From NCBI GenBank assembly GCA_938091745.1, contig CALLJK010000002.1, forward strand, positions 26,842 through 90,841: a DNA stretch of 64,000 nucleotides. Direction: 5' to 3'. This document shows, piece by piece, positions 2,297-64,000 of the stretch (the stretch's first letter is position 1; each line of letters opens with the position of its first letter). Made by a program: the position numbers and the translations under genes. Origin of the DNA: Candidatus Bipolaricaulota bacterium (GTDB lineage: Bacteria; Bipolaricaulota; Bipolaricaulia; RBG-16-55-9; DRXL01). The notes beneath the pieces are model-generated. The model had not been told where the DNA came from and searched no databases. It saw only the letters and a program-made list of their open reading frames with translations.

Positions 2297-2357
2297 CCCC
2301 TTCCCTAAGAGGGAAGGGGCTCCCCTCCCCCTCCTTCAGGGGAGGGGCTGGGGGAGC
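2297..2357. repeat. Bipartite G/C-tract palindromic element (family 2: CCCCTTCCCT..GGGAAGGGG + CCCCTCCCC..GGGGAGGGGCTGGGGGAG). It sits between the convergent gatC and peptidase genes and probably acts as a bidirectional terminator.
   Basis: Two adjacent perfect hairpins can be read directly. A near-identical architecture recurs at 15165-15229. The last 7 codons (PLPQPLP) of the peptidase are encoded by it. Confidence 0.7.
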
Positions 2358-3997
2358 GGTTGGACCACCTGAACCCGTCTTGATGCGATATTGTTGTCAT
2401 AGCGATCAAGCTCGAGACGCAGCGCCGGATCGCGTAGGAGTCTTATAGGGTCTTGGAGATGGCGCACGCGCACCAACAGCAACGTGTCAAGAGTAGCCCG
2501 CGGCGGCACCCACAGGAACGTCGTCGTGGCTGAGCCGTTTGCAGGGATATTGATAAAATGCCGAAAGACCGGTTCTGTTGAAGAATCGCCGTCGTCATCT
2601 ATGGGCTGCCAACTCTCGGGCCACGCAGAGAAATCGAGCTGCGAATTGTCCTTCCAATAGAGCTCAACAATGGCATTGGGCACGTCCGTCAGCCCACGAT
2701 TATAGACTGTAACGTAGACACGATTGACCGCGTTCGCGACAGCATCCTCGTGATCGTTCTCTCCGAAGGGTTCTTCGGTCGCGTTAACGATCCCCACGGG
2801 TGCGCCATCTATTCGGATATCAGGGCTGAAGCCGATCTCACTCGACGGGACGCTGCCGTCATCAAGCTCGCTGTCGCGCACGATCAGTTCGGCAAGGGCT
2901 TGTTCTAGGAGATAGAGCGCTGCCGGGAGGTTCTCTTCAAACGTCGGGAGAATCTGATCAGCAGGGAGCACAAAGCCCGGCTCGCCCGTAGCTGGGCGCA
3001 GCTCGATCACAAGAGAGATACCCCCGGTCTCGCTGTAGAACCAATCGTTGGAGACGCCCGCTGCAGGATAAGGGCACTCTAAGCTGAGCTGGCACGCGCG
3101 ATAGCTCTGTCCGTGAGTGCTATAGATAAGCTTAGCCATCGTCTCGCCGATGCGTGCATACTCGACGCTATCGGAAGGAGGATCGAAGCGCACGTCTTCG
3201 CTCAACGGGATTGGGGGATCGAAGGAGTATCCCCACGGCCAGCCCACGATCTGCGAAAAGCTATGATAGTCAATAAACGCCTTGAAGCGCCGACGGGGGT
3301 CGAGCACGAGATCACGAATTGCTCGGATTTCGGGTTCGGAGAAGGGCTCCGGCCCGCGATATGTGAAGCTTTGGGGGTTGCGGCTGCCGCCGGCGCGTGA
3401 GTCCCACTGGAAGCCCCAATTTCTGTTTAAGTCAACCCCGAAAATGCCGTTGCCCAGGTCTCTTCGGTTCTTGCGCCACAGACGACAATAAAACTGTGGG
3501 GCCGTCGGGCAAGGATCGAGACGCGTGTACTCGTGCCCGTCAGGGTTGACCATTGGGACGATCCAGATCTCTAAGTTATCGAGTAGTCTCTTGACGCGCT
3601 CGTCGATCGCGTAATGCTGGGCTAGATATTGAGCGATGAGGAACGGGACTTCGACGCCGATCCACTCGCGGGCGTGTTGTCCTCCAATAAAGAGCGTTTC
3701 GGGTTCAGTGGGGTCTTCGATAGAAACAGCGTCGCTGAGTTTAATGGCCCAGATCTCGCGCCCTTCGTGGCTTTGCCCAAGAGAGACGACTTGGACAATC
3801 TGAGGATACTGCTCCGCGAGCGCAGAGAGATCGTCTTTCAAAGAGCGAAACTCCCAGACGCCAAAGCCGGCGATGTTCGTCGTCCCGGTGAAGTCATAAG
3901 CGTGATAGACGAGCGACGGCGGAAGCTGCGTCTGGGCTGGCTGATTGCTTGCAAAGATGGAGAGACTGAGAGCGATAAGCACGAGCGCCCGGCGCAT
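2336..3997 (-). CDS. Secreted zinc carboxypeptidase (M14 family) with C-terminal CARDB-like domain
   Basis: N-terminal signal peptide, the HAREWIG zinc-binding motif, and a C-terminal domain ending in a YDNN motif. GGAGG RBS lies 7 nt upstream on the minus strand. Confidence 0.75.
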   Translation of the reverse strand: MRRALVLIALSLSIFASNQPAQTQLPPSLVYHAYDFTGTTNIAGFGVWEFRSLKDDLSALAEQYPQIVQVVSLGQSHEGREIWAIKLSDAVSIEDPTEPETLFIGGQHAREWIGVEVPFLIAQYLAQHYAIDERVKRLLDNLEIWIVPMVNPDGHEYTRLDPCPTAPQFYCRLWRKNRRDLGNGIFGVDLNRNWGFQWDSRAGGSRNPQSFTYRGPEPFSEPEIRAIRDLVLDPRRRFKAFIDYHSFSQIVGWPWGYSFDPPIPLSEDVRFDPPSDSVEYARIGETMAKLIYSTHGQSYRACQLSLECPYPAAGVSNDWFYSETGGISLVIELRPATGEPGFVLPADQILPTFEENLPAALYLLEQALAELIVRDSELDDGSVPSSEIGFSPDIRIDGAPVGIVNATEEPFGENDHEDAVANAVNRVYVTVYNRGLTDVPNAIVELYWKDNSQLDFSAWPESWQPIDDDGDSSTEPVFRHFINIPANGSATTTFLWVPPRATLDTLLLVRVRHLQDPIRLLRDPALRLELDRYDNNIASRRVQVVQPLPQPLP

Positions 3998-15164: not shown

Positions 15165-15229
15165 CCCCTTTCCCTGAGATTGGGGAAGGGGGAACTCCCC
15201 TCCCCGTGCCGGGGAGGGGCTAGGGGAGA
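15165..15229. repeat. Second copy of the family-2 bipartite palindromic element (CCCCTTTCCC..GGGGAAGGGGG + CCCCTCCCC..GGGGAGGGGCTAGGGGAG), located 3' of thiL
   Basis: Same two-hairpin architecture and near-identical arms as 2297-2357. Confidence 0.7.
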
Positions 15230-15233
15230 GGTT

Positions 15234-20587: not shown

Positions 20588-20659
20588 GGCCCTCATCCCG
20601 CCCTTGCGGGCACCCCTCTCCCGTAGTCACCTACGGGAGAGGGGTTGGGGGTGAGGGCC
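20588..20659. repeat. Palindromic element with GGCCCTCA.../...GGGTGAGGGCC termini enclosing a 14-bp hairpin (CCCCTCTCCCGTAG/TACGGGAGAGGGG). It overlaps the 3' end of the DUF5317 gene.
   Basis: Terminal inverted repeat and internal hairpins read directly. The termini match those of the family-1 elements at 29018 and 40600. Confidence 0.65.
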
Positions 20660-21194
20660 TCTTCCCCAACAGCCAGATCACTCCCAATCCTAACAACAGA
20701 TCCCCAACGCTGAACGCGTTGGCAAACGGCACCCAGCTCGGCAGCCAAAGAATATCTCCCAAAAAATTGAGCTTCGTCGTCTCGCTCATTAGGATAACGT
20801 TGCCCGAAACGCCGTCAATGAGTAATTTTTCGACCGTCGCTGCTCTCCCCGCAGCGCGCAACGCATCGAGAGACGCCGGCATGTGCCCGCCGTTGGCAGT
20901 AATGACTATGAAATTCGAGAGCATCCCCAGGGCCATCGGCCAGAGGGCTTTCTCGCGATAATTGAGAACAGCAAAGAGCAGCAAGAGCAGATACGACCCG
21001 ATGTGTAAGAACTCCATGCCCCACGTGACGATAGGCTGTGCGTTCTGCCCCAGGGGCAGAATGAGAACCTGAACGAGCACAGCGAGTAGCACCAGCCAGC
21101 CCGCGCGTAGCTTCAATTCCGCAAGATATGCCAGACTTCGATGGCGTACTAACCCGATGAGCAGTCCTAGGAGAATCGCCCAGAGGAGAACCAT
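20631..21194 (-). CDS. DUF5317-family integral membrane protein
   Basis: Polytopic membrane protein downstream of HD-GYP. The last ~10 codons (KRPSPPTPLP) come from the repeat element. Confidence 0.6.
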   Translation of the reverse strand: MVLLWAILLGLLIGLVRHRSLAYLAELKLRAGWLVLLAVLVQVLILPLGQNAQPIVTWGMEFLHIGSYLLLLLFAVLNYREKALWPMALGMLSNFIVITANGGHMPASLDALRAAGRAATVEKLLIDGVSGNVILMSETTKLNFLGDILWLPSWVPFANAFSVGDLLLGLGVIWLLGKRPSPPTPLP

Positions 21195-26844: not shown

Positions 26845-28542
26845 ATGAGCGAAGCTCCGAAAGACTTCATTCGCGAGATCATCGAGAATGATATCAAGAC
26901 AGGTCGATATGGTGGGCGCGTCCATACGCGCTTCCCCCCAGAACCCAACGGGTATCTGCACATCGGCCACGCCAAGAGCGTCTTGCTCAACTATTGGATT
27001 GCCAAAGAATACGGGGGAAAATTTAATCTGCGCTTCGACGACACCAACCCCGAAAAAGAAGAGCAAGAGTACGTCGATGCCATCAAGCGCGACGTCAAAT
27101 GGCTTGGGGTCGACTGGGAAGACCGCGAGTTCTACGCGTCAGACTATTTCGAGCAGCTCTACCAGTGGGCTGAAGAACTCATCAAGAAGGGCAAGGCTTA
27201 TGTGTGCGATCTCTCCCCCGAAGAAGTTAGCGAATACCGGGGCAAAGCGATCATCCAAGATGGGAAGGTCATCACGCCCCCGGGGAAAGAGAGCCCCTAT
27301 CGCAATCGCTCTGTCGAAGAGAATCTCGATTTGTTTCGCCGAATGCGCGCGGGTGAGTTTCCCGACGGCTCCAAAACGTTGCGCGCTAAGATCGATATGG
27401 CCCACCCGAACTTAAATATGCGCGACCCCGTCATGTACCGCATCATGCATGTCCCACATCATCGTACCGGGGACAAATGGTGCATCTACCCCACGTACGA
27501 TTGGGCGCACGGGCAGTCTGATTCTATCGAAGGGATTACACACTCAATCTGCACGCTGGAGTTTGAGGACCATCGGCCGCTCTATGATTGGTTCTTAGAT
27601 CAGCTGGGGATTCATCACCCGCGGCAGATCGAGTTTGCTCGATTGAATCTGACTTATACGGTGATGAGCAAGCGCCTGCTCTTGCAGTTGGTGCAGGAGG
27701 GGCACGTGCGCGGCTGGGACGATCCTCGAATGCCCACGCTCGCGGGGATGCGCCGCCGCGGCTACACCCCGGAAGCGATTCACGAATTTGTCCGTCGTGT
27801 GGGGGTCTCCAAGCGCGAGAGCATCACCGAGTTAGAGCTTCTTGAACACTGCGTGAGACAAGATTTGAACAAGCGCGCACCCCGACGCTTAGCCGTGCTC
27901 GACCCCTTGAGAGTCGTCATCACGAACTATCCCGACGGCCAAGTCGAGTGGCTCGAGGCGATCAATAACCCTGAAGACCCCAGCGCGGGCACGCGCAAGG
28001 TCCCGTTCTCCAAAGTCTTATATATCGAGCGCGATGATTTTATGGAAAACCCTCCAAAAGACTTCTATCGCTTGGCGCCTGGACGCGAAGTGCGCCTGCG
28101 CTATGCGTACTTTATCAAGTGTGTCGATGTCATCAAAGACGCTCAAGGCAACGTGATCGAGCTGCACTGCACGTATGATCCGGCGACACGCGGGGGAGAA
28201 GCTCCCGACGGGCGCAAAGTCAAAGCGACGATTCATTGGGTTTCAGCTCAACACGCCATTAACGCTGAAGTGCGTCTGTATGACCGTCTCTTCACCAAGC
28301 CCGACCCGTTGGATGTCCCCAAGGGCCATGACTGGAAGGAGAACATCAACCCCAACTCGCTGATCGTTCTACAGAACTGCAAACTGGAGCCGAGCCTAGC
28401 TGATGCGCAAGTGGGGGATCGCTTCCAATTTGAGCGCAAGGGGTACTTCTGCGTTGATCCAGACTCGACCCCAGAAAGATTAGTCTTCAATCGCACGGTC
28501 ACTCTCAAGGGCGAGTGGGAGAAAGCAAGACAGCAGAGTTAG
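26845..28542 (+). CDS. glnS: Glutaminyl-tRNA synthetase
   Basis: [26 protein letters not shown] and VMSKR motifs. Length is 565 aa with a GlnRS anticodon-binding beta-barrel region. Confidence 0.9.
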
Positions 28543-28577
28543 CCTTGCGTCTCGCTCTGAGATACAATATCAGTTTG

Positions 28578-29438
28578 ATGCGCTCTGTATCGCTTGCCCC
28601 TGGACTGGAGTTGATAGACCTCGCACTCTTCTTGCCTAGGATGAGAGCGCTTGCTATCGCTGACATTCACTTGGGGATTGAAGACGCTCTCAAAGACGAG
28701 GGCGTTCTCGTGCCCAGACAGCATCTTGCCCAAGTGCAGCAGAGATTGGAGCGCATCTTCAAGGAGCTTGCTGTCACGCCCTCGGAGCCGTTACAAAAAA
28801 TAATAATTAATGGCGACCTGCGCCATCAGTTTGGCCCGCTCTCGCGCGTCGAACATAAAGAATCCAAAGAATTCTTGCGCTGGCTTGCTAACTGGACAGA
28901 GCAGATCGTGCTGGTTGAGGGCAATCACGACGGCTCGCTGAAACACTTTGCTAACGAACGCATCACGGTGACGAAACGCTATAGCGAAGGGGACTGCTGG
29001 TTCGTGCATGGGGATGAGGCCCTCACCCCCAGGCTTCGCCTGGACCGTCCATCTTCGCCAGCCTCTGGCTGGCGAAGGCAAAGCCCATGCGCAGCGTGCC
29101 CCAAGGGCGGGGTGAGGGCCTGGCTCGTCATCGGCCATGAGCACCCTGCTGTAGGCTTGCGCGATCCCGTCACCGGGCGCACAGAAGTTTATAAGTGCTT
29201 TCTCGTCGGAACTTTTCGAGAGTACGATCTCTTAGTCTTGCCGTCGTTCAATCAGCTCGTGCGGGGAAGCGATCTGCTCAGAGAGCAGCCCCTCTCACCG
29301 TTTGTGCAGCAGAGCGAACTCGAAGAGTTTTCAGTCTACGTTGTCTCCGATGACGGCTCTCTCTACGAATTTGGCCCTCTACGCCGATTGTTCCATTCCT
29401 CCTCCCTCTCCCCTGTGAGGGAGAGGGGCAGGGGGTGA
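28578..29438 (+). CDS. Calcineurin-like metallophosphoesterase carrying an in-frame palindromic-element insertion
   Basis: DIHLG, GDLRH, GNHD and VHGD motifs. Start taken as the Met at MRSVSL (28578), before the DIHLG motif; the ORF track starts at 28515 inside glnS. Residues encoded by the element are LTPRLRLDRPSSPASGWRRQSPCAACPKGGVRA. Confidence 0.75.
   Translation: MRSVSLAPGLELIDLALFLPRMRALAIADIHLGIEDALKDEGVLVPRQHLAQVQQRLERIFKELAVTPSEPLQKIIINGDLRHQFGPLSRVEHKESKEFLRWLANWTEQIVLVEGNHDGSLKHFANERITVTKRYSEGDCWFVHGDEALTPRLRLDRPSSPASGWRRQSPCAACPKGGVRAWLVIGHEHPAVGLRDPVTGRTEVYKCFLVGTFREYDLLVLPSFNQLVRGSDLLREQPLSPFVQQSELEEFSVYVVSDDGSLYEFGPLRRLFHSSSLSPVRERGRG
29018..29120. repeat. Family-1 palindromic element (12-bp TIR GGCCCTCACCCC/GGGGTGAGGGCC, internal 11-bp hairpin CTTCGCCAGCC/GGCTGGCGAAG) inserted inside the metallophosphoesterase CDS without breaking the frame
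   Basis: ~90% identical to the intergenic copy at 40600-40703. Confidence 0.8.
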
Positions 29439-29444
29439 GGGAGC
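29401..29444. repeat. Short G-tract palindromic element (CCCTCTCCC-CTGTGA-GGGAGAGGG followed by GCAGGGGGTGAGGGAGC) forming the 3' end of the phosphoesterase gene and the SD of folC
   Basis: Hairpin read directly. GAGGGAG sits 6 nt before folC ATG 29445. Confidence 0.6.
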
Positions 29445-30722
29445 ATGACCTACGAAGCGATGCTCCAGAAGCTTTATAATCTGAAGGGCACCGGGCTTGA
29501 TTTAGAACGCATTTTAGGTCTATTAGGGAACCCGCACAAAAGCTTTCGCGCGATTCGCGTCGCCGGCACCAACGGCAAGGGCTCGGTCTGCGCGTTTTTA
29601 GCGCAGATCTTGCAAGAAGCGGGCTTTCGCGTCGGGCTGTTCACCTCGCCCCATCTTGTCTATCCCGAAGAGCGCATATGCGTCAATGGGCGTGAGATCT
29701 CGCACGAGGAGTTTCACGCCCAGTTTGAGCGCATCTGGGCCGTGATCGAAGAGCTGTACGGAGACAGAAGCGAAGAGCACGCGCGGTTCTTTGAAGTGTT
29801 GACGCTCATGGCGCTCGATTACTTTCGCCAGCAAAAAGTAGACTGGGCGGTGATTGAGTGTGGTGTGGGCGCGCGCACTGACGCTACACGAGCCATTTCA
29901 GCGCCCGTCGCTGTCCTGACGAACGTAGAGCTCGACCATCGCGAATCGCTCGGGGAGACGATCGCGCAAATCGCGTATCAGAAAGCTGCTGTCGTCTCCG
30001 AGGGGGGACTGTTGATCACAGCTGAGTCCAAGCCCGAAGCGCTCGCGGAGATTGAACGCGAGTGTCGGCTGAAGAACGCGCGGCTTCTCCAAGTCGATCT
30101 CTCAAGGCTACAAGCGAAATCAAACAGTTGGGAGGGCCAACGCTTCGACTGGCGCGATTGGCGAGACTTAGAAATTTCGCTCTTAGGAAGCTACCAACTG
30201 CAGAATGCCGTCTTGGCTGTAGAAGCTATGGATGCTTTAGGCGAGCACGTTGTTCCTGAGAGCGCGATTCGCGCAGGGCTGCACACAGCGCGCTGGCCTG
30301 GTCGGATGGAGTTGCTCTGCAAAAACCCCTATGTTATGCTAGACGGGGCGAAGAACCCTGCGGGGATGCGGGCGCTGCGCACAGCGCTCTCCCCACTGGA
30401 ATACGAACGCTGTATAGTAGTCTTAGGGATATCTGATCGCAAGGACGCAGCAGCCATGATCCAAGAGATCGTGCCGGCAGCTGATAGAATAATCGTCACG
30501 CGCGCGGCGTTCCGTGGGGTCGATCCAGAATATTTAGCCTCTTTGATTCGGCCCTCTGGTGTGCCGTGTACTGTTATCTCAAGATCAGATAGAGCCATAG
30601 AATTGGCCCTCGCTCAAGCACACCACCGCGATCTCATCTGCGTGACCGGCTCGCTCTTTCTCGTGGGCGAGATCCGAGCCTGGTGGAAAGGACAGGAGCA
30701 TTCTTGTAAGAATTCTCATTGA
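29445..30722 (+). CDS. folC: Bifunctional folylpolyglutamate synthase / dihydrofolate synthase
   Basis: Mur-ligase family. Motifs VAGTNGKGS, and DGAKN/DGAHN-like. Confidence 0.88.
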   Translation: MTYEAMLQKLYNLKGTGLDLERILGLLGNPHKSFRAIRVAGTNGKGSVCAFLAQILQEAGFRVGLFTSPHLVYPEERICVNGREISHEEFHAQFERIWAVIEELYGDRSEEHARFFEVLTLMALDYFRQQKVDWAVIECGVGARTDATRAISAPVAVLTNVELDHRESLGETIAQIAYQKAAVVSEGGLLITAESKPEALAEIERECRLKNARLLQVDLSRLQAKSNSWEGQRFDWRDWRDLEISLLGSYQLQNAVLAVEAMDALGEHVVPESAIRAGLHTARWPGRMELLCKNPYVMLDGAKNPAGMRALRTALSPLEYERCIVVLGISDRKDAAAMIQEIVPAADRIIVTRAAFRGVDPEYLASLIRPSGVPCTVISRSDRAIELALAQAHHRDLICVTGSLFLVGEIRAWWKGQEHSCKNSH

Positions 30723-31071
30723 GAACTTACAGCTCTTTGGTCATCACGGCGTGCACGAGCATGAACGCGCACACGGTCAACTCTTTGCTATTGACGCGGA
30801 GCTTGAATTCGATCTTCCCCCAAAAGACGAGCTTTCGGAGACTGTGGATTACGTTCGAGTGATCGAGCGGATTCGCGCCGTGAACGAATCGAGCTCGTTC
30901 TCTCTAATAGAGAGATTTGCCCAGGCCATCGCCGAGGAGATCTTACGAAATTTTTCTCAGGTGCAGCGCGCACGGGTGCGCGTGCGCAAGCTCCATCCGC
31001 CCTTGCCCTCGGATATCACGGTGGGGGCCGTAGCCGCGGAGGTGACCTGCGATCGCTCACGCTTATATTAG
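30712..31071 (+). CDS. folB: Dihydroneopterin aldolase (start codon non-canonical / uncertain)
   Basis: ILIENLQLFGHHGVHEHERAHGQLF aligns with the FolB N-terminus, including the YGYHGV block. The frame opens at 30646 and has no ATG, GTG or TTG before that conserved N-terminus. The only GTG (30751, ORF-track start) lies within it. Candidate starts are ATT at 30700, 30712 or 30718. Confidence 0.7.
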   Translation: MLIENLQLFGHHGVHEHERAHGQLFAIDAELEFDLPPKDELSETVDYVRVIERIRAVNESSSFSLIERFAQAIAEEILRNFSQVQRARVRVRKLHPPLPSDITVGAVAAEVTCDRSRLY

Positions 31072-31084
31072 CTTAGGCTCCAAC

Positions 31085-31552
31085 GTGGGCCATCGAGAAG
31101 AGCAGATTCAAAGAGCTGTGAGTGCTCTGGCTCACACCCCCTCTATAAAGATCTGTCGGCAAGCAGGGCTCTACGAGACCGAACCCGTGGGCATAGAAGA
31201 TCAGCCATGGTTTCTCAATACCATCGTCGAGATCGAGACTGACCTGACTCCGCGCAAAGTATTAACGGTCTGCAAAGAGATTGAGCGCGCGCTCGGGCGC
31301 CAAGAGCGCCCACGCTACGGTCCGCGCGAGATCGATTTAGATATTCTCCTGTACGATCACTTAATCATAGATGATCCGGATCTGAAGATCCCTCATGCGC
31401 AGCTGCATCAGCGACGCTTCGTGCTGGTGCCGCTGGCAGAGCTTGCGCCGCACTACGTGCATCCTGTGCTCCACAAGACCATCACGGAGCTCCTCCAAGA
31501 GCTGACTGACCCCAAGGAGGTGAGGCCCTACGGTCACGGAGATTCTCATTGA
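31085..31552 (+). CDS. folK: 2-amino-4-hydroxy-6-hydroxymethyldihydropteridine pyrophosphokinase (HPPK)
   Basis: YGPREIDLDILLY and PH..L..R.FVL.PL.E motifs. Confidence 0.88.
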   Translation: MGHREEQIQRAVSALAHTPSIKICRQAGLYETEPVGIEDQPWFLNTIVEIETDLTPRKVLTVCKEIERALGRQERPRYGPREIDLDILLYDHLIIDDPDLKIPHAQLHQRRFVLVPLAELAPHYVHPVLHKTITELLQELTDPKEVRPYGHGDSH

Positions 31553-32744
31553 GACAGTCGCCCCAGCGACGCGCATCGCGCTCCTCGAAGACGGACGTCT
31601 TATGGAGATCCACTATGACAACCCGGAGCGCATCTTGGGCAATATCTATAAGGGGATCGTGCGCGACATCTTGCCGGGGATCAATTCAGCATTTGTCGAC
31701 GTAGGACTCGATGAAAAACTTTTCCTTTCCATGAAAGAGCTCAGCGATACCCTATGGAAGGAGCATCGTGGTCGGAAGGGGCAGAACCCGCAGATCCAAA
31801 AATTACTCAAGAGTGGCCAACAGATCATTTTGCAGGTGAAGCGCGAGGGTATTGGCACAAAGAATCCCCAAGGGACGATGAAGATTAGCCTTCCTGGACG
31901 CTACTGGGTCTTTTTGCCTGTGGATGAGCGCTTGGGGGTCTCACGACGTATCACCGATGAGCATGAGAGCCGACGTCTCAAAAGAATTGCCAAGAAGCTC
32001 AAGCGCGAAGGAGAGGGACTGATTGCGCGTACTGCCGCTGCTGGCGCTTCTGAAGAAGACCTCGAACGAGACTTCAATTATCTTTTAGGGACATGGAAAG
32101 GGATCGAAGAGCAAGCACAGCGCGTGAAGGCCCCAGCGTTGCTCTATCGTGGGCCGGATCTTGTGCGCGCCTTCTTGCGCGATCGGTTAATAGAAGACGT
32201 CAAGCGCGTGGTAGTCGACAGCGAGCGCGTCTATCAAGAGATCAAAGATTTTCTCTCGTACATGCACATGGAAGAGTTCTTGGATCGCATCGAGCTGTAT
32301 CGTGGGAAGCGGCCGCTCTTTGAGGCCCGCGGGGTGGAGAAGCAATTGCGAGAGAGTTTGCAGTCGCGGGTGCGTCTGCCCGGCGGCGGTTCTCTCGTGA
32401 TCGCTGAGACAGAAGCGCTCACGGCCATTGACGTGAACACCGGCAGCGATATCAAGCACAAGGACCAAGAGCAAGCGATTTTGAACACAAACTTAGAAGC
32501 TGCCGTAGAAATCCCACGACAGTTACGATTGCGCAAGCTCAGCGGGATTATTATTGCTGATTTTGTGGACATGAAGCGCCACGATCACGTCGAGAAGGTG
32601 ATTCGGAAGCTCCAAGAAGAGCTGAAGAAGGACCGGGTACCTGCGGACTTTGTGGACATCACGAAGTTAGGGTTGGTGGAGATCACGCGCAAGCGCGAGG
32701 GGGAGAGTTTGCTAGGCATGCTGGAGGAGGAAGAGGAGACTTGA
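31542..32744 (+). CDS. rng: Ribonuclease G / RNase E-family endoribonuclease (start non-canonical / uncertain)
   Basis: S1 domain, DNase-I-like and Zn-link regions. The conserved N-terminus ILIETVAPATRIALLEDGRL precedes the first ATG (31602). The frame opens at 31524. Candidate ATT starts are at 31542 and 31548. Confidence 0.75.
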   Translation: MLIETVAPATRIALLEDGRLMEIHYDNPERILGNIYKGIVRDILPGINSAFVDVGLDEKLFLSMKELSDTLWKEHRGRKGQNPQIQKLLKSGQQIILQVKREGIGTKNPQGTMKISLPGRYWVFLPVDERLGVSRRITDEHESRRLKRIAKKLKREGEGLIARTAAAGASEEDLERDFNYLLGTWKGIEEQAQRVKAPALLYRGPDLVRAFLRDRLIEDVKRVVVDSERVYQEIKDFLSYMHMEEFLDRIELYRGKRPLFEARGVEKQLRESLQSRVRLPGGGSLVIAETEALTAIDVNTGSDIKHKDQEQAILNTNLEAAVEIPRQLRLRKLSGIIIADFVDMKRHDHVEKVIRKLQEELKKDRVPADFVDITKLGLVEITRKREGESLLGMLEEEEET

Positions 32745-34475: not shown

Positions 34476-35357
34476 TCAAGCCCTCGCGCGATTGATTGCT
34501 TCTCTGAGGGCTATCGCGGCCTCGCGGGCAGCTTGTGCAAAGTCTTCGCCGTGGGAGGCAAAAATCACACTCCGTGAAACGTTTATGATCGCGAGTTCTT
34601 TGTAAGAATTCACGCTGTTCTTGATGGCTTGGGCGAGATCGCCTGCTTGCGCACCCACGCCCGGCACTAAGATAGGCATCTCGTCGCCCACGATCCGACG
34701 AACGATTGCTAATTCATCCGGGGCTGTCGCTCCGACGACGACTCCCACGTTCTTGCGCGTGTTCCATTCGCGGGCTTTCTCGGCCACGTACTGGTAGAGA
34801 GGCTTGCCTTCCTCACCCTCACCCCTCGAGCCCCCTCTCCCCTCCGAGGGAGAGGGGAAGGGGTGAGGGGGCAAGCAGTTGAGTTCTTGGAAATCTCGTG
34901 CTCCGGGATTGGAGGTGCGCACCAGAAGAAACGCGCACTTGTCTGAGTACTCTAAAAACGGTGCGACGGAGTCGAAGCCCATCAAGGGATTGACCGTCGC
35001 GGCGTCGAAGCGATAATACTCAAAGAGCGCTTTAGCATAAGCCCGCGCCGTATTTTCGATATCTCCGCGCTTGGCGTCCCCAATGACGGGGATCTCTGTG
35101 GGGATCAGCTCACGCGTTTTATAGAGAATCTCTAGCCCCACCGGGCCGAGCATCTCATAGAATGCGAGATTGGGTTTATACGCGCAGACGAGATCGCTCG
35201 TCGCTTCGATGATCGCCTTGTTAAACTCTAAAACAGCGTGAGCGCCGTGGCGCTCTCGCAGGAACGCTGGAATTTTTGAAAGCTCTGAATCAAGCCCGAT
35301 GCAAAGCCAACTGTTATTCCGGTGCGCAATCGCACACAGCTTGTCAAGAAAGCCCAT
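34476..35357 (-). CDS. pyrF: Orotidine 5'-phosphate decarboxylase (type 2) carrying an in-frame 25-codon palindromic-element insertion
   Basis: LCIGLD, VIGDAKRGDI and RTSNPGA motifs. The inserted segment CLPPHPFPSPSEGRGGSRGEGEEG lies between the RTSNPGARDFQEL and KPLYQYV blocks. Confidence 0.85.
   Translation of the reverse strand: MGFLDKLCAIAHRNNSWLCIGLDSELSKIPAFLRERHGAHAVLEFNKAIIEATSDLVCAYKPNLAFYEMLGPVGLEILYKTRELIPTEIPVIGDAKRGDIENTARAYAKALFEYYRFDAATVNPLMGFDSVAPFLEYSDKCAFLLVRTSNPGARDFQELNCLPPHPFPSPSEGRGGSRGEGEEGKPLYQYVAEKAREWNTRKNVGVVVGATAPDELAIVRRIVGDEMPILVPGVGAQAGDLAQAIKNSVNSYKELAIINVSRSVIFASHGEDFAQAAREAAIALREAINRARA
34802..34876. repeat. 75-nt nested palindromic element (TIR GCTTGCC/GGCAAGC, outer CTCACCCCT/AAGGGGTGAGG arms, inner CCCTCTCCC-CTCCGA-GGGAGAGGG hairpin) inside pyrF. 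It contains a G-quadruplex-type G-run array.
   Basis: Read directly. The segment CCTCCGAGGGAGAGGGGAAGGGGTGAGGGGGCAAG recurs identically at 63350-63386. Confidence 0.8.
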
Positions 35358-35409: not shown

Positions 35410-36720
35410 ATGCGTGTCGTTATTGTTGGGGCGGGAGAGGTGGGCCGGAGCATCGCTGCAGCGCTCCAGACCGATCACGACGTCGTCGTCATCGAGAAAG
35501 ACCCGGATCGGCTTCAGCTTCTCCAAGAGCTTGATGTGCTTGGGGTGCTGGGTAACGGCGCAAGCTTGAAGACCCTCAAAGACGCCGGAGCTGAGAGAGC
35601 TGACTTAGCCATCGCCAGCACCGATATCGACGAAGTGAACATCGTCGCGTGTGCTGCTGCAAAACAACTCGGCGCCCAGATCACGGTCGCTCGCGTGCAA
35701 GATGCCGAATATCTCCAGACATGGAAGCGCGGCTACTTAGGGGTCGACGAGATGGTCTGCAGCGAGTTAATTACTTCCCAAGCGATTGCTGACGTGATCG
35801 GGTTGCGCGGGGTTCGCGCTTCAGACGAGTTTGCTGACGGCAAGATCTTGATGACTGAGACCGTCGTCGAAGAGAACTCTCCTTTGCTGGGGTTGCGCCT
35901 GCGCGAGGCAGCTATCCCCGCCGACTGCAACGTTGCGAGCATTATCCGCGAGAACGCTGTGATCATCCCCCGCGGCGAAGATCAAATCCTCGCTCATGAC
36001 CGGCTCGTGCTCATCGGGACCCCAGAAGCTGTTCACGAATTTAACCGACGACTGAGTCTCTATCCCGCCGTCAAAGAGATCTTGATCGTAGGAGGAGGGC
36101 GGATTGGCTTTCGCCTCGCGCAAATCTTGCAGGCTCGCGGGCTCAAACCCAAGCTCATCGAGCCCGATGAGGAACGCAGCCGCTGGCTTGCTGAGAATCT
36201 ACCTAATACTTTGGTCTTCCACGGCGACGGCACAGATATAGAGCTCTTAGAGCGCGAAGGGCTCTCTCGCTGCGACGTCGCCGTCAGCGTCATCGGGGCA
36301 GATGAGCGCAATTTGCTTTGCGGGCTCTTGCTCAAGCGCATGGGTGTTCCACAAGTTATCGTGCGCGTCGAAGACCCCAACTTTATTACGATCTTTGAGC
36401 GTGTGGGCATTGATATTGCGATCAATCCCCGGCGGCTGATCGCAGAGGAGATCATCTCATTCACGCGCGGACGCATCGAGAAATCGCTCTCACTAGAGCA
36501 AGACCGCGCTGAGGTACTCGAGATCAAGGTCTCCCCTGAGAGCCCCTTCATTGGGATTCCGTTGGCACAAGCGCAGATACCAGCAGGGGTACTGATCGGC
36601 GCGATTGTGCGCGGCGAGAGCGTCATCATCCCGCGCGGGACGGATGTTCTTCAGCCAGGGGATCACGCCATCGTCTTCAGTACGAAAGCAGCCGCACAAC
36701 AAATCGAGAAGCTCCTATGA
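35410..36720 (+). CDS. trkA: Trk potassium uptake system NAD-binding component
   Basis: Tandem TrkA-N Rossmann folds (MRVVIVGAGEVG...; ILIVGGGRIG...) and TrkA-C domains. Confidence 0.85.
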   Translation: MRVVIVGAGEVGRSIAAALQTDHDVVVIEKDPDRLQLLQELDVLGVLGNGASLKTLKDAGAERADLAIASTDIDEVNIVACAAAKQLGAQITVARVQDAEYLQTWKRGYLGVDEMVCSELITSQAIADVIGLRGVRASDEFADGKILMTETVVEENSPLLGLRLREAAIPADCNVASIIRENAVIIPRGEDQILAHDRLVLIGTPEAVHEFNRRLSLYPAVKEILIVGGGRIGFRLAQILQARGLKPKLIEPDEERSRWLAENLPNTLVFHGDGTDIELLEREGLSRCDVAVSVIGADERNLLCGLLLKRMGVPQVIVRVEDPNFITIFERVGIDIAINPRRLIAEEIISFTRGRIEKSLSLEQDRAEVLEIKVSPESPFIGIPLAQAQIPAGVLIGAIVRGESVIIPRGTDVLQPGDHAIVFSTKAAAQQIEKLL

Positions 36721-38183
36721 TGCGACGCTGGGATCTCTCTGTAGACGTGCGGGCAGCGCTCCATCTGGTGGGTGTGTTGGTCAAATGGTTCAGCATTGCG
36801 TTTGCGCTGCCCTTGATCTATGCGATCTTTGCTCGTGAGATCTGGTGGCCTTACGCCCTAACGGGGGCTCTTGCTGGACTGGGAGGGTGGGCCATGGAAC
36901 GCGCGGCGTTCACAGAGAGAGATATCCGACCGCGCGAGGGTTTTTTTGTTGTCGCGTTGGCATGGGCGGTCGTCGCCTTTTTGGGAGCAATGCCCTTTGC
37001 GCTCATGGGGGCCTTGCGTCCTATAGATGCCTACTTTGAGGCGATGAGCGGCTTCACGACCACGGGCGCAACAGTGATCGCCCACGTCGAGGGGCTGCCC
37101 AAGGCGCTGCTCTTATGGCGAGCGTTTACGCAATGGCTCGGCGGAATGGGAATAATCGTCTTGGCCGTGGCGCTCTTGCCCAAGTTGGGAGTCGGCGGCT
37201 CGCAACTCATGGACGCTGAGGCCCCAGGGCCAACTCTCGAGAGACTGACACCCCGCATTCGGGAGACAGCTCGACTGTTGTGGGGGATCTACGTCGGCTT
37301 GACGGCTTTCGATGTGATCTTACTCGTCTTTGTGGGAAGGCTGAGCTGGTTCGATGCGGTCGCTCATGCGTTCACCACGCTGTCTACCGGAGGGTTCTCA
37401 ACGAAAGATTCCGGATTCACTGTGTTTTCTGGAGCAGCTCAATGGATCACTGTTCTGTTCATGGCGATAGGGGGGCTCAACTTTGCTCTGCTCTATCGGG
37501 TGGTAGCGCGGCGGCAGTGGCATTCTCTTATTACTGATACAGAAGCACGCTTTTATGGGGCGCTCTTAGGAGGGGCAACGCTTGCCTTGTGGATGAGCGT
37601 CGATGGGGGGGTTGAGGGCCTACGTCATAGCGCCTTCCAAGCGGTGAGCATCATGACGACCACAGGATATGCCAGCGCTGACTTTGAGCGCTGGGCTCCA
37701 ACAGCGAAGATGATCTTGTTAGTCTTAATGTTTCTGGGAGGGTGCGCAGGGAGCACAGCCGGCTCGATCAAAGTGATTCGGACGTGGCTGGTCTTTCGGT
37801 TTATCGTGCGGGAGACGCGTAACGTCATCCATCCGCAGGCAGTGCTGCCCATTCGGGTAAGCGGGCGCGTTGTGAGCGAATCTATCGTGCGAGCTGTAGC
37901 GATCTTCGCTATTCTCTATGTGACGATCTTTGCAGTGAGTAGTATGCTCTTGCTCTGGGACGCAGCTCGAGTAGGGTTGAATATGAACATGGTTGAGGCC
38001 GCAAGCGCTGCGGCTGCCACGTTGGGGAACGTCGGCCCAGGCTTTGGCCTAGTTGGGCCAATGAGCACGTATGCGCAGCTTCCTGGGACGTCGAAAATCT
38101 TATTGGTCTTTCTGATGTGGGCAGGGCGCTTGGAGCTCTTCCCCGTGCTGGTGCTGTTTGTGCGCAGCTATTGGAAAGGATAA
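36717..38183 (+). CDS. trkH: Trk potassium uptake permease
   Basis: TrkH/KtrB-family membrane protein with selectivity-filter-like TTGFS and TTGYA motifs. Confidence 0.85.
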   Translation: MMRRWDLSVDVRAALHLVGVLVKWFSIAFALPLIYAIFAREIWWPYALTGALAGLGGWAMERAAFTERDIRPREGFFVVALAWAVVAFLGAMPFALMGALRPIDAYFEAMSGFTTTGATVIAHVEGLPKALLLWRAFTQWLGGMGIIVLAVALLPKLGVGGSQLMDAEAPGPTLERLTPRIRETARLLWGIYVGLTAFDVILLVFVGRLSWFDAVAHAFTTLSTGGFSTKDSGFTVFSGAAQWITVLFMAIGGLNFALLYRVVARRQWHSLITDTEARFYGALLGGATLALWMSVDGGVEGLRHSAFQAVSIMTTTGYASADFERWAPTAKMILLVLMFLGGCAGSTAGSIKVIRTWLVFRFIVRETRNVIHPQAVLPIRVSGRVVSESIVRAVAIFAILYVTIFAVSSMLLLWDAARVGLNMNMVEAASAAAATLGNVGPGFGLVGPMSTYAQLPGTSKILLVFLMWAGRLELFPVLVLFVRSYWKG

Positions 38184-39637: not shown

Positions 39638-40591
39638 ATGAAAACAATAAGATTTGTGTTACTCATTGTTGGGGTGCTCTTCGTCGCCGGAACGCTCTTG
39701 ACCAGCTGCGGTGGTGGAGTCAAGCCCCCCACAGCCGTGATCACTAAGCCGCAGAGTGGTGCGCAGTTTACAGTCAACCAAGCTATCGAGTTTGCAGGAT
39801 CAGCCAAGGACGATGCCGGCAAGGAGGTCACAAAAGATATCGTCTTTGAGTGGGACTTTGGCGATGGCACAACAGAGAAGGGCCAAACCGTCTCTCACAC
39901 ATACAGCACCAGTGGGACGTACACCGTGAAGTTGACGGTCAAGACCGCGGCTCAAGCCAAAGAGACAAGCCCCAAGCTCGAAGCGAAGCAGACAGCCCAG
40001 ATCGAGATCACAGTGACAGCGGCCCTGTCGGTGGCGATCTCGGCGAGCGTCATAGAGGGGCCAGCTCCGTTAGAAGTCTCATTCACTGCGGAAGTCCAGG
40101 GCATAGCAGCCAGCTACACTTGGGACTTCGGCGACGGCTCCACAAGCTCCGAAGCCAACCCAACGCATACGTTCACGACTGAGGGGACGTACACGGTGAA
40201 GCTCATCGTGACTGCCCCTGACGGCAGCACCGCTTCTGCAGAGAAGACGATCACCGTGACAGCACCACAACAAGCGTCACGGAACCTTTATATTGTCAAA
40301 ATGGTGAGCACTTCTGATGGCCGGCATTTCTTTGACCCAGCAGAGTTGACCATCAGAGTCGGCGAGACGGTTCGCTGGGTGAGCGAGTGTGCAGAGGGCA
40401 TGACCTGTGTCTATTCGGTCCAAGCGTATCCCGATAAGATCCCCGCGGGCGCGGAAGCCTTCAACTCAGGGCTCCTTATGGAGCAGGGACAGTCATTTGA
40501 GTATACGTTCACTGTCCCTGGAGAATATGAATACTTCTGCTTGTCCTATGAGCCCATGGGGATGAAGGGGAAGATCATCGTGCAGCCGTAA
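39638..40591 (+). CDS. Lipoprotein with two PKD domains and a C-terminal cupredoxin (plastocyanin-like) domain
   Basis: Lipobox LTSCGG. Two WDFGDG PKD signatures. The C-terminus HFFDP...[17 protein letters not shown] is plastocyanin-like, but Tyr occupies the usual CxxH position. Confidence 0.7.
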
Positions 40592-40599
40592 TGAGAGGA

Positions 40600-40703
40600 G
40601 GCCCTCACTCCCCAGGCTTCGCCTGGACCGTACATCTTCGCCAGCCACAGGCTGGCGAAGGTGAAGCCCACGCGCAGCGTGCCCGTAGGGCGGGGTGAGG
40701 GCC
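40600..40703. repeat. Intergenic full-length family-1 palindromic element (12-bp TIR GGCCCTCAC(T)CCCC/GGGGTGAGGGCC)
   Basis: ~90% identical to the intragenic copy at 29018-29120. Same internal CTTCGCCAGCC/GGCTGGCGAAG hairpin. Confidence 0.8.
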
Positions 40704-41738: not shown

Positions 41739-41762
41739 GGAGCCCCTTGGGGGAGGGGCTCC
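41739..41762 (+). terminator. GC hairpin (GGAGCCCCT-loop-AGGGGCTCC) immediately after the ltaE stop. Likely an intrinsic terminator without a U-tract.
   Basis: 9-bp perfect stem read directly, followed by an AT-rich promoter-like region with TATAAT at ~41925. Confidence 0.5.
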
Positions 41763-41952
41763 ATCCCACCCGCTTGTGGAGTGGTGGTGAGAGGATGGTA
41801 GAGGGATTTTATTATACCCTATCTTCCGAAAGCCGTCTGTAGCGGAGATCACATTGAAACTTTTTTCTCAGTTGATGGTATTTATACGTGTCACGCTCTA
41901 GGCACAGGGGGCAATCCCGTGCTATAATGGGGCGGACCGAAGGAGGCCATCT

Positions 41953-45161: not shown

Positions 45162-45177
45162 CTCCAAGGAGGCGACT

Positions 45178-51772: not shown

Positions 51773-51868
51773 CGCTCACCAGGCTTCGCCTGGATCGTAC
51801 ATCGTGCCGTCTGCGGCGGCACGGTGAACAGTCCAGACGAAGTCTAGGGCGAAGCCTGGAAGGGGAGG
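51773..51868. repeat. Variant palindromic element (12-bp TIR CCAGGCTTCGCC/GGCGAAGCCTGG) sharing its 5' arm with family 1. Its 3' end provides the SD (GGGGAGG) for ftsW.
   Basis: AGGCTTCGCCTGGA(T/C)CGTACATC is shared with the 29031 and 40613 copies. GGGGAGG lies 7 nt before GTG 51876. Confidence 0.65.
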
Positions 51869-51875
51869 TGCGCAC

Positions 51876-61583: not shown

Positions 61584-61631
61584 CTTGCACCAAGAGCGCT
61601 GTTTGTGGTATTATTCACAAGGTGAAACCCT

Positions 61632-63269
61632 ATGACCGCGAAGCCCTGGCTCCGACACTACCCTGAAGATATCCCCCACACTCTGAATTACCCAGATAAG
61701 CCACTCTATGACTTCTTGGATCGCTCGGCAGAGCAGTACGAGAAAGCACCGGCACTGATCTTCTTCGGGCAGCGAATCTCGTACGGGCAGTTGCGTGAAC
61801 TCACTGATCGCTTTGCGGCAGCACTCGTGCAGATCGGGGCCAAGCCCGGCGAAAAGATCTCGCTGATGCTCCCCAATATCCCGCAGTTTGTCATCGCGTT
61901 CTACGGCGCGCTCAAGGCAGGCCTCACCGTCATCCAGACCAACCCCCTCTACACAGAAGACGAACTCCAAGTCATCTTGGGAGACTCCCAAGCTGAGACG
62001 CTCATCACTCTAGATCGCTTCTATGAAAAAGTCTTGCACATTCGAGGGCAGACGAACCTCAAGCGCATCATTGTTACGGGGGTGCACGAGTTCTTCCCTG
62101 GGCTGCTGCGATTGGGATATCTGCTCAAGGAGCGCCCAAAGAGAATAAGACCCGCTCCCCCCAATGTCTATCTCTTCTCCGAGCTGATTCGTAGCGCTCC
62201 CGCGCATCCCCCAGAGATCCCTGTACGTCCCAGTGATATCGCGCTCTTTCAGTATACGGGAGGGACGACAGGGATTCCAAAGGGCGCGATGCTCACCCAT
62301 AGAAACTTAGTGGCGAACACGCTGCAATCGTGCTCGTGGTTCCCGCGCGCCCGCATGGCTCAAGAGACATGTCTGTGCGTGCTGCCCCTCTTCCACGTCT
62401 ATGCTATGACCGTCGCGCTCAATCTCTCCATGGCGCTCGCTGCGGCGCTCATCTTGGTCCCGCGCTTCCAGATAGACGAACTCTTAAAGATTATAGATCG
62501 TGAGCGTCCGTCGCTCTTCCCCGGCGCGCCGACGCTGTACGCCGCTATTGCGAATCATCCTCGAGTAAAAGAGTATCACGTCAGCTCGATCAAAGCATGT
62601 CTGAGCGGCTCAGCGCCGCTTCCGTTAGAAGTCAAACGGCGCTTTGAGGAGCTGACCGGCGCGTCGCTCGTTGAGGGCTATGGGCTTTCAGAAGCTTCTC
62701 CCGTGACCCACTGCAACCCGCTCTATGGGCGACAAGTTCCGGGAAGCATCGGCATTCCCTTCCCCGACACCGATGCCAAGATCGTGGACCCCACGTCAGG
62801 TCAGGAGTTGCTCGTCGGGGAGATCGGGGAACTCGTCATCCAAGGCCCCCAGGTGATGGCCGGCTATTGGAACCGTCCCGAAGAGACAGCGATGGCACTG
62901 CGCGGCGGCTGGCTGCACACGGGCGATCTGGCTCGCATGGACGAAGACGGCTATTTCTATATCGTTGACCGTCTCAAAGAGATGATCATCTGTTCGGGGT
63001 TAAAAGTCTACCCGCGCGAGGTCGAAGAAGTCTTATATAAGCATCCCAAAGTGCTCGAAGCAGCCGTGATTGGGGTGCCCGATGCCTATCGTGGCGAGAC
63101 GGTGAAAGCATTGATTGTTCCCAAGCCCGGGACAAGCCCGACTGCTGATGAGATCAAAGCATTTTGCGCGGAGCACCTGGCGAAGTACAAAGTGCCCACG
63201 ATCGTCGAGTTTCGTGACTCACTGCCCAAGAGCATCGTGGGGAAGATATTGAAGAGAGATCTGCGATGA
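61632..63269 (+). CDS. fadD: Long-chain-fatty-acid--CoA ligase (ANL superfamily)
   Basis: YTGGTTGIPKGAMLTH AMP-binding motif and GYGLSEASP. Confidence 0.85.
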   Translation: MTAKPWLRHYPEDIPHTLNYPDKPLYDFLDRSAEQYEKAPALIFFGQRISYGQLRELTDRFAAALVQIGAKPGEKISLMLPNIPQFVIAFYGALKAGLTVIQTNPLYTEDELQVILGDSQAETLITLDRFYEKVLHIRGQTNLKRIIVTGVHEFFPGLLRLGYLLKERPKRIRPAPPNVYLFSELIRSAPAHPPEIPVRPSDIALFQYTGGTTGIPKGAMLTHRNLVANTLQSCSWFPRARMAQETCLCVLPLFHVYAMTVALNLSMALAAALILVPRFQIDELLKIIDRERPSLFPGAPTLYAAIANHPRVKEYHVSSIKACLSGSAPLPLEVKRRFEELTGASLVEGYGLSEASPVTHCNPLYGRQVPGSIGIPFPDTDAKIVDPTSGQELLVGEIGELVIQGPQVMAGYWNRPEETAMALRGGWLHTGDLARMDEDGYFYIVDRLKEMIICSGLKVYPREVEEVLYKHPKVLEAAVIGVPDAYRGETVKALIVPKPGTSPTADEIKAFCAEHLAKYKVPTIVEFRDSLPKSIVGKILKRDLR

Positions 63270-63285: not shown

Positions 63286-63417
63286 GGCCCTCACCCCCTT
63301 CCCCTCTCACCCTCACCCTTGTAGGGGCAGGTCTGAGACCTGCCCCTACCCCCTCCGAGGGAGAGGGGAAGGGGTGAGGGGGCAAGAGGGGTGGCGCAGC
63401 CGCCGGGGTGAGGGCCC
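63286..63417. repeat. Composite nested palindromic element: family-1 TIRs (GGCCCTCACCCCC ... GGGGTGAGGGCC) enclosing a 13-bp hairpin (GTAGGGGCAGGTC-TGA-GACCTGCCCCTAC) and the CCTCCGAGGGAGAGGGGAAGGGGTGAGGGGGCAAG module also present inside pyrF
   Basis: Read directly. It fills the fadD-PPTase intergenic region. Confidence 0.75.
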
Positions 63418-63442
63418 TCCCCTCGACACAAGGTGAAGCCCC

Positions 63443-64000
63443 ATGACTGCGAAGCCCTGGCTCCAACTTGCGACAGAGCGTTCCTTCCCAGAACCCTCTC
63501 AATGGTTGACTGCAGAAGAGCTTCGTACGTTTCAGAGAATCAAAGCATGGCAACGCCGTCAAGACTGGCTGGCGGGGCGCTGGGCCGCTAAAGGGCTTGT
63601 ACGAGAATATCTTCGTGAGAGAGCGAATCTTGCGCTTGATCCTGCCCAGATTGAGATCGGGAACGCTCCTACAGGAGCACCATTGCTCCAGCGGCCGCTC
63701 TGCAGCGAGATCCATATCTCGATTGCTCACAGTGCGGGGTATGGATTAGCGGGGCTGGCGCTGGGCGCCCCCATTGGTGTGGATTTACAACATATCCGTG
63801 CGGTGCGTCTTGATTTCCACGAGCGCGTGCTCAGCGAGCACGAGCGCGCGCAGCTTGCGCATCATTTCTCTGGGCGGGAGGGCGTGCTCGTCTTCTGGGC
63901 GCTCAAAGAAGCAGCGATCAAAGCCCAACGAACTCGTCCGACCCCGGCCCTCCGTGAGATCAGCGTCACGCTGACAGAGCCGGGGCAGGCTGAGATCTCT
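63443..64000 (+). CDS. 4'-phosphopantetheinyl transferase (Sfp/EntD type), 3' partial at window edge; not in the supplied ORF track
   Basis: Open frame from ATG 63443 to the window end. GVDL and FWALKEAAIKA PPTase motifs. AAGGTGA SD. Confidence 0.7.
   Translation, partial: MTAKPWLQLATERSFPEPSQWLTAEELRTFQRIKAWQRRQDWLAGRWAAKGLVREYLRERANLALDPAQIEIGNAPTGAPLLQRPLCSEIHISIAHSAGYGLAGLALGAPIGVDLQHIRAVRLDFHERVLSEHERAQLAHHFSGREGVLVFWALKEAAIKAQRTRPTPALREISVTLTEPGQAEIS

Follow-up and report, generated by a model that had tools for sequence, protein, structure and literature searches.

A nested palindromic repeat carried in frame by a metallophosphoesterase gene of a Candidatus Bipolaricaulota bacterium

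In-frame colonisation of housekeeping genes by palindromic repeats is known mainly from Rickettsia, through the Rickettsia palindromic elements (RPEs; Ogata et al. 2000, Science 290:347; for summaries see PMC10969869 and PMC3733652), and from scattered intragenic copies of repetitive extragenic palindromic (REP) sequences. Intragenic REPs have been described, as have intragenic enterobacterial repetitive intergenic consensus (ERIC) and BOX elements (PMC10969869, PMC3733652); many of the REPs lie in replication and repair genes, and in two Xanthomonas species different REPs occupy about the same site in recB (PMC3733652). REPs associated with RAYT transposases are marked by a conserved tetranucleotide, GTAG (or CGTC), at one of the palindrome's ends, Di Nocera et al. 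noted a GGGGWSAS motif in the inverted repeats that flank TIRYT genes, and REPs are themselves targets for the insertion of insertion sequences (all PMC3733652). Here we analyse a 103-nt repeat, copy A, at positions 29018-29120 of a 64,000-nt stretch of contig CALLJK010000002.1 (the window) from a Candidatus Bipolaricaulota bacterium, a member of an uncultured, hot-spring-associated phylum. The repeat lies inside a gene for a metallophosphoesterase (MPE).

The element is a nested composite of two separable repeat families, a hairpin shell and a three-hairpin core. It is probably a non-autonomous, selfish palindromic repeat of the REP, bacterial interspersed mosaic element (BIME) and RPE kind, seated in a permissive loop of an MPE nuclease and translated as a disordered insertion of 34 residues. 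Its most interesting features are the clear series of states displayed by two orthologous sites, one coding and one intergenic, and the in-frame turnover of cargo in the coding loop. With both sites caught in several states, the order of events and the mobilising mechanism become directly testable.

Structure of the composite and of its two families

Copy A has an intergenic twin in the window, copy B (Table 1). The two copies (103 and 104 nt) align with 92% identity and a single 1-nt indel, and their similarity ends sharply, exactly at the element boundaries (repeat family D4). The original prediction, made from the letters of the window, had described two copies about 90% identical, 12-bp inverted repeats, an internal 11-bp hairpin, a reading frame that stays open through the intragenic copy, and an intergenic copy beside ltaE. 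All of these are borne out; the inverted repeats are perfect over 13 bp, and the frame reads ...VHGDE-ALTPRLRLDRPSSPASGWRRQSPCAACPKGGVRA-WLVIGHEHP... through copy A. What is not supported is the description of a single unit bounded by terminal inverted repeats, as the arms behave as a hairpin family of their own, whose members also occur empty, in a basal form or with other cargo. The arm 12-mer occurs nine times in the window with at most one mismatch, against 0.40 expected, and none of 100 shuffled sequences reaches nine. On either strand, copies A and B fold much better than their shuffled counterparts (z-scores -5.5 to -8.4).

The shell family comprises 15 copies in 252 kb, made up of the window and 30 related loci (designated L below). 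Besides the arms, the basal shell, about 70 nt long, has two hairpins, one small (GCCC-NNN-GGGC) and one big (CCCCTCTCCCGTAG-TCAC-CTACGGGAGAGGGG), as at window position 20588 and in L002, L004 and L009. The composites have the big hairpin replaced either by the core (window 29018 and 40600, L004, L009 and L013) or by G-rich hairpins of the D6 type (window 63286, L009 and L104); the cargo found is basal, core A, core B or D6-type. By locus, the shell is empty in L112 and L110/L111, basal at window 20588 and in L106, and holds other cargo at window 63286 and in L104 and L109. The bases flanking the arms are frequently A...T, extending the palindrome. The variant copies listed in the original prediction also exist, two of them (20588-20659 and 63286-63416) with the arms and another interior, the third (51779-51870) being a core that has no arms. 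Convergent genes flank the basal shell at 20588-20659, whose positions 20631-20659 supply the last codons and the stop of one of them, a DUF5317 gene (20631..21194, -). A lone right-arm-like sequence, GGGTTGAGGGCC (one mismatch), is located at 37609-37620 inside an open reading frame (ORF; 36717..38183, +) with no left partner, and may be the remnant of a decayed shell.

A scan of the GTDB representative genomes for a 24-nt core pattern returned 21 loci in eight Bipolaricaulota assemblies; most of these copies have no GGCCCTCACCCC arms. From 5' to 3', the core consists of hairpin 1 (HP1; CCAGGC-TTC-GCCTGG), a 9-nt linker (ACCGTNCAT), HP2, which has a 9-11-bp stem of variable sequence, and HP3, which occurs as type A (CACGC-GCA-GCGTG), type B (CCAGAC-GAA-GTCTGG) or type C (CAAGC-GAA-GCTTG). 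The core often has a 3' GGCGAAGCCTGG that pairs with its 5' end. HP2 is 99% paired over 29 copies, with five pairs changed on both sides; none of 500 shuffles matches this, and controls slid along the sequence are 25-44% paired. HP1 is uninformative on the conservation of pairing because it is fixed by the search pattern. With a covariance model of the core, three matches and no more are found in the window (29029, 40612 and 51779); related loci totalling 188 kb give about 40, and double cores also occur. In the bare core of the window, HP3 reads CCAGAC-GAA-GTCTAG and the 3' GGCGAAGCCTGG pairs with a 5' CCAGGCTTCGCC. No conserved insertion target motif is apparent at the core junctions.

The original prediction had called these repeats a MITE/REP-like family. 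The term holds in that the repeats are dispersed, non-coding and palindromic, and the family extends over several species. The search for target-site duplications that it proposed has now been made, and none was found in the flanks of the 15 shell copies or of about 30 cores. Because no copy is flanked by such a duplication, the repeats fall outside the classical definition of a MITE (a miniature inverted-repeat transposable element).

Copy A is not an artefact, since the insertion is also carried by L105, an independent ENA contig with 99.978% identity to window positions 27870-32438 (4569 bp). An assembly error, which the original prediction had named as one outcome that would overturn it, is thereby ruled out; the two flanks of copy A are, besides, halves of one conserved gene in one frame. 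The sole mismatch between the window and L105 falls inside HP3 of copy A, where position 29088 is T in the window and C in L105 (position 1219). C is also the base in copy B, and it restores a pair of the HP3 stem; the difference could stem from gene conversion between copies or from a raised mutation rate in the palindrome.

A known RNA family was also considered as the source of the repeats and rejected, as Rfam holds no match. At gathering thresholds only a tRNA was matched in the whole window, and copy B and the bare core, scanned permissively, gave nothing beyond sub-threshold microRNA-hairpin noise.

Table 1. Positions of the host gene, the repeats and their parts in the window
Feature	Position	Strand	Description
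Basal shell element, 72 nt	20588..20659	.	Arms, small hairpin, big hairpin ACCCCTCTCCCGTAG-TCAC-CTACGGGAGAGGGGT; no core
Host gene, MPE/SbcD-related metallophosphoesterase, TIGR00024 family	28515..29438	+	Likely start ATG 28578 (MRSV...)
Copy A, shell plus core composite	29018..29120	+	In frame in the MPE gene; encodes ALTPRLRLDRPSSPASGWRRQSPCAACPKGGVRA
Copy A shell left arm, AGGCCCTCACCCC	29017..29029	.	13 nt, 100% complementary to 29109-29121
Copy A three-hairpin core, type A	29029..29098	+	Covariance-model match, 59.4 bits, E 1.6e-13
Copy A HP1	29029-29043		CCAGGC-TTC-GCCTGG
Copy A HP2	29053-29077		CTTCGCCAGCC-TCT-GGCTGGCGAAG, 11-bp stem
Copy A HP3	29086-29098		CATGC-GCA-GCGTG
Small shell hairpin	29098..29108	+	GCCC-CAA-GGGC, kept beside the copy A right arm; also in basal shells and copy B
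Copy A shell right arm, GGGGTGAGGGCCT	29109..29121	.	Pairs with left arm
D6-type hairpin at MPE/folC junction	29403..29446	.	Encodes MPE C-terminal tail ...SSSLSPVRERGRG and stop; abuts folC ATG 29445
Copy B, same composite (shell plus core A)	40600..40703	+	Spacer between PKD/cupredoxin gene 39638..40591 and ltaE (ATG 40713)
Bare core, type B	51779..51870	+	71 bits; between FtsX-like permease gene and ftsW; no shell arms
Shell with other cargo	63286..63416	.	G-rich D6-type hairpins; intergenic

Orthologous sites, the host protein and other copies

The MPE gene lies in a conserved order, GlnRS-MPE-FolC-FolB-HPPK-RNase E/G, and synteny around it is kept across the orthologues compared; its close homologues and all DNA matches come from metagenome-assembled genomes of Bipolaricaulota/Acetothermia. 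The loop that holds copy A is hypervariable in this clade, the rest of the protein being 70-80% conserved. Counted from the first residue of WFVH to the last of GHEHP, it is empty and repeat-free in L108 (72 nt, HGSESEELGEGAWIVIGHEHP) and L024 (75 nt, HGDEVLAVPDSADRLVIGHEHP). It holds a nearly empty shell in L107 (102 nt), a shell with a decayed right arm in L022 (108 nt) and a basal shell in L106 (126 nt). In the window and L105 (150 nt) the shell contains core A, and in L104 (168 nt), which shares sample ERZ6863514 with L105 and has a flanking gene 88% identical, identical arms at the identical position contain D6-type cargo. Two further loops contain bare cores, of type B in L103 (123 nt; forward, in a different reading frame) and of type A in L102 (123 nt; in reverse orientation, with the G-D of HGD overwritten), and other G-rich repeats are found in L023, L025 and L026 (120-141 nt). 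Since the orthologues show empty, shell, swapped-cargo and bare-core states, we regard the MPE loop as a hotspot with repeated turnover. The 3' junction always stands directly ahead of a conserved Trp codon, and every surviving state keeps the reading frame. The orthologues read the same core DNA in three or more frames or orientations, giving the peptides RLRLDRP..., QASPGPY... and ...TVQAKPG.

In distant MPE homologues the loop between HGD and W(L/I)(V/I)IGHEHP is about 10 residues long. The comparison with orthologues suggested in the original prediction thus finds the insertion absent from the same place in L024, in L108 and in all distant homologues, and the empty alleles together with these short loops rule out an ancestral segment shared by all. 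It does not find a clean addition of about 34 residues to an intact loop: the native loop of about 8-10 residues is gone, its residues are missing from every filled allele, and the site has been turned over repeatedly. The L102 orthologue (P0015, assembly JBKBIX) contains two cores, at 2290-2373 and 2541-2611, with the ORF remaining open; besides the one that overwrites the G-D of HGD, the other replaces the conserved EQPLSPFVQQ segment of MPE, and this protein may be impaired.

The orthologous site of copy B, the spacer between the cupredoxin gene and ltaE, was compared across loci (percentages below are LtaE identities). In L112 (89%) the spacer has a bare hairpin, AGGCCCTCACCCC-TCATGGAAAT-GGGGGTGAGGGCCT, with a 13-bp stem and a 10-nt loop. 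The same hairpin is found in L110 and L111 (92-93%) with a compensatory change in its arms (AGGTCCTCAC...GTGAGGACCT) and a short loop. In L109 (96%) the arms surround different cargo, composed of a reverse type-A part, HP2 and a type-B HP3, and in the window, the reference, they surround a forward core A. Because the orthologous spacers show the hairpin empty or differently filled, the arms constitute a resident hairpin whose loop takes cargo. In L110/L111 (1444-1500) the empty shell hairpin, 3' of the cupredoxin gene, is followed by TTTTATT and resembles an intrinsic terminator; copy B has no T-run after its shell hairpin.

The protein encoded by the host ORF is a calcineurin-like metallophosphoesterase (Pfam PF00149), and the insert divides its match to the TIGR00024 profile into two stretches. 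Among solved structures, the closest by both sequence and fold is 6NVO, the single-strand DNA nuclease MPE of Pseudomonas putida. All family-invariant residues are kept in the protein of the window (D50, H52, N99-G100-D101, G136-N137-H138-D139, H165 and G207-H208-E209-H210), and the insert, residues 169-202, lies three residues past the metal ligand His165 and five ahead of His208; its predicted junction-spanning peptides are ...YSEGDCWFVHGDEALTPR and GGVRAWLVIGHEHPAVGLR. An AlphaFold2 model built on a 31-sequence alignment is confident overall, with a predicted template modelling score of 0.80, and the predicted local distance difference test (pLDDT) falls below 50 at residues 1-3, 16-20, 177-198 and 297-307. 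Residues 177-198 fall within the insert, between strands 161-164 and 203-206. The modelling proposed in the original prediction therefore puts the insert in a loop of low confidence that joins the HGD motif to GHEHP, and, judged by confidence and secondary structure, the insert is predicted to be a disordered loop outside the core of the fold. The host gene is itself related to nucleases for single-stranded or hairpin DNA (MPE, SbcD/Mre11), which may be a coincidence.

A second repeat affects the same protein. The D6-type hairpin at the junction with folC lengthens MPE by about 11 residues, which form its C-terminal tail (residues 297-307, pLDDT below 50). Five orthologues (L108, L103, L026, L023 and L024) lack this hairpin, and in them the stop codon of MPE and the start codon of folC overlap (ATGA).

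Insertion in coding sequence is not confined to MPE. The original prediction held that these repeats are tolerated there, and about 10 of some 40 core copies examined in related genomes are indeed in frame within ORFs whose Pfam domains flank the insert, although intragenic copies were detected by requiring an open frame, so that any frame statistic carries an ascertainment bias. TilS has a shell with core between its TilS and TilS_C domains, LipB a core within the catalytic domain, and a tandem ABC ATPase a double core in the inter-domain linker; in-frame cores are also present in a HypE-like AIRS protein, a PEGA-domain protein and a Fer4/GltS-like protein. In the window, pyrF, the gene for orotidine-5'-phosphate decarboxylase (34476..35357, -), contains a G-rich hairpin of the D6 family in frame at 34810-34875, encoding LPPHPFPSPSEGRGGSRGEGEEG, and the OMPdecase match of PyrF is split in two around it. 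Such repeats create spurious low-complexity peptides ('PRERGRG', 'QASPGP...') in predicted proteins and split profile matches, and they are likely to fragment assemblies of metagenome-assembled genomes.

Within the window, the copies at 20588, 40600, 51779 and 63286 are located downstream of genes or between them, and further core copies overlap the 3' ends of genes or exactly fill spacers between tRNA genes. In L012 (5716-6084) the order is tRNA-Gly, core, tRNA-Arg, core, tRNA-His, and L005 and L019 have a core between tRNA-Arg and tRNA-Ser. The Asp-Phe spacer contains the core in opposite orientations in L006 (354-570) and L015 (3058-3274).

The window contains other repeats as well. The D5 family of G-rich palindromes (GGGAAGGGGCTCCCCTCCCC...GGGGAGGGGCTGGGGGAG) is found at 2311-2361, 15183-15233 and 41750-41800, at gene ends or between genes, and the first of these encodes, over 2336-2361, the last codons and the stop of a convergent gene for an M14 carboxypeptidase (2336..3997, -). 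The repeats at 44248-46067 (D1, D3 and D7), unrelated to the palindromic families, are tandem coding repeats of the NHL or beta-propeller type. The D10 repeat (61616-61656 and 63427-63467) is the duplicated gene start of two tandem paralogues, the first of which is an AMP-binding enzyme gene (61632..63269), and stands outside the palindromic families.

Origin, movement and competing explanations

A plausible course of events begins in an ancestor of this Bipolaricaulota clade, in which a shell would have inserted in the loop that separates the HGD motif from GHEHP. A core would later have replaced or filled the interior of the shell, giving a composite like that at 40600, and selection would have retained only variants that kept the reading frame and had no stop codons. 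The repeats may have been moved in trans by a hairpin-recognising, single-strand Y1/HUH transposase of the RAYT or TIRYT type; template switching or gene conversion between dispersed copies could have been an alternative or an added route. A single-strand mechanism fits and a DDE mechanism does not, because target-site duplications are lacking, the ends are hairpins, hairpin loops receive insertions and both orientations occur; from this we infer movement by a Y1/HUH enzyme, by template switching or gene conversion, or by both. As a lead only, we note that the arm GGGGTGAG matches GGGGWSAS, the motif described for the inverted repeats on either side of TIRYT genes (PMC3733652).

Several points weigh against a selfish repeat moved in this way. 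Two IS200/IS605 TnpA queries (IS200 and ISHp608, both approximate sequences) gave no phmmer match to a Y1 transposase among 1914 ORFs of at least 60 aa from the window and the 30 loci, a weak negative, since there are one or few such genes per genome and a missing one in 252 kb says little. The feet of the core and shell hairpins have no conserved GTAG or CGTC tag: cores begin with CCAGGC... and end with ...GTCTGG or ...GCCTGG, shells begin with AGGCCC... and end with ...GGGCCT, GTAG is present only beside the loop of the big hairpin of the basal shell, and CGTC lies in the linker of copy A, at a position that varies among copies. No very close relative has a clean empty MPE allele; the insertion boundaries are therefore approximate, and nested insertion, conversion of cargo, spread of the whole composite, and excision with later re-insertion are all candidates for the order of events. 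The composite has identical junctions at 29018, at 40600 and in L009 (4661-4767), which suggests that it can spread as a unit, and such spread fits poorly with purely independent insertions of cores into shells. The conserved pairing could also reflect a function of the hairpins in the cell and not pure selfishness. Lastly, that the insert is translated and not removed is read from the preservation of frame; removal by bypassing or splicing of the mRNA was considered, but all intragenic copies are open and in frame and so do not require it.

The alternative that fares best, which we nevertheless think unlikely, is that the hairpins are primarily functional RNA or DNA elements of the host, acting as stabilisers of mRNA 3' ends, as signals for processing in tRNA operons or as terminator-like signals. 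In that case copy A would be a by-product, or might even control the translation of MPE through ribosome pausing. Many copies do stand right after stop codons or exactly fill tRNA-tRNA spacers, the stems are maintained by covariation and their predicted folding is very stable, and at the cupredoxin-ltaE spacer the shell hairpin is kept across species through a compensatory arm change, with TTTTATT following it in L110/L111. However, orthologous sites differ freely in their cargo, the Asp-Phe spacer has the core oriented oppositely in L006 and L015, most copies have no T-run, and no Rfam family matches. Copies also occur in many unrelated coding regions, in three frames and both orientations, and palindromy is kept equally on both strands, as would be the case for a constraint on DNA or on mobility.

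A classical MITE would be a deletion derivative of a DDE insertion sequence, with 12-13-bp ends that bind the transposase and a 103-nt body that is cut and pasted as a unit. The small size, the multiple copies and the perfect 13-bp terminal inverted repeats of the composite agree with this, as does the recurrence of the same composite, with the same inner junctions, at 29018, 40600 and L009 4661-4767. We consider it improbable all the same: no target-site duplication accompanies any of the 15 shell copies or any bare core, no insertion sequence with these ends was seen in the 252 kb, the core mostly occurs without arms, and the arms surround unrelated cargo or, at an orthologous site, only a 10-nt loop.

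We give little credence to a further possibility, that the shell is a dedicated landing pad whose loop exchanges hairpin cassettes, among them cores and D6-type units, by a site-specific, single-strand mechanism and so constitutes a diversity-generating device within the gene of a DNA-repair-type nuclease. If this were true, the exchange in a pad inside a gene would rewrite a protein loop without breaking its frame and would be more than mere turnover of junk. Recruitment of the inserted peptide for a protein function, for example as an interaction or regulatory loop under diversifying selection, is very improbable, since its position beside the MPE active site (three residues after His165, five before His208), the invariably kept frame and a hypervariable loop in an otherwise 70-80% conserved protein are offset by unrelated peptides read from the same DNA in three frames or orientations, by insert-free orthologues in the same clade (L108 and L024), by predicted disorder and by a peptide that is the plain translation of a repeat 92% identical to a non-coding copy.

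Comparison with described repeat systems

A selfish palindromic repeat in a permissive loop, the reading that we prefer, has its closest parallel in the RPEs. Like these, the repeats of the window are short, palindromic and selfish, are found both between genes and in frame in many unrelated housekeeping genes, and leave the host proteins intact, with the predicted extra peptide in a loop or outside the core of the fold. Unlike RPEs, they are G+C-rich (about 66%) and belong to a free-living, hot-spring-associated phylum. They are also modular and nested, whereas each RPE is a single unit in the reviews (PMC10969869, PMC3733652), and different modules have repeatedly taken over one protein loop, in varying orientations and frames. 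No relationship to RPE sequences is evident, the two being set apart by base composition and host and not by direct comparison.

The likeness to REPs and BIMEs lies in dispersed, G+C-rich hairpins that are mostly found just 3' of genes, with some overlapping stops and some intragenic, in a mosaic of hairpin modules without target-site duplications, and in an arm fitting GGGGWSAS. The core differs in being a three-hairpin unit of about 70 nt instead of a single palindrome of 20-40 nt, and the family has no conserved GTAG or CGTC tag and no RAYT/TIRYT gene found in the 252 kb.

Insertion sequences of the IS1397/ISKpn1 type target REP hairpins. As in that case, a resident palindrome acts as the landing site and its arms bracket the incoming element; here, though, the incoming element is a tiny non-coding palindrome, not a full insertion sequence, and the event can leave a reading frame open.

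Pneumococcal BOX and enterobacterial ERIC elements are likewise modular or imperfectly palindromic repeats that are able to carry ORFs and occasionally form in-frame fusions (PMC10969869). They differ in sequence and host phyla, and the modules of BOX are arranged linearly (A-Bn-C), not nested in a hairpin loop.

A full-text literature search found no relevant description of repeats in Bipolaricaulota/Acetothermia. The repeats are best filed as a new family, from a previously unexamined phylum, of a known kind that resembles both the REP/BIME elements and the RPEs.

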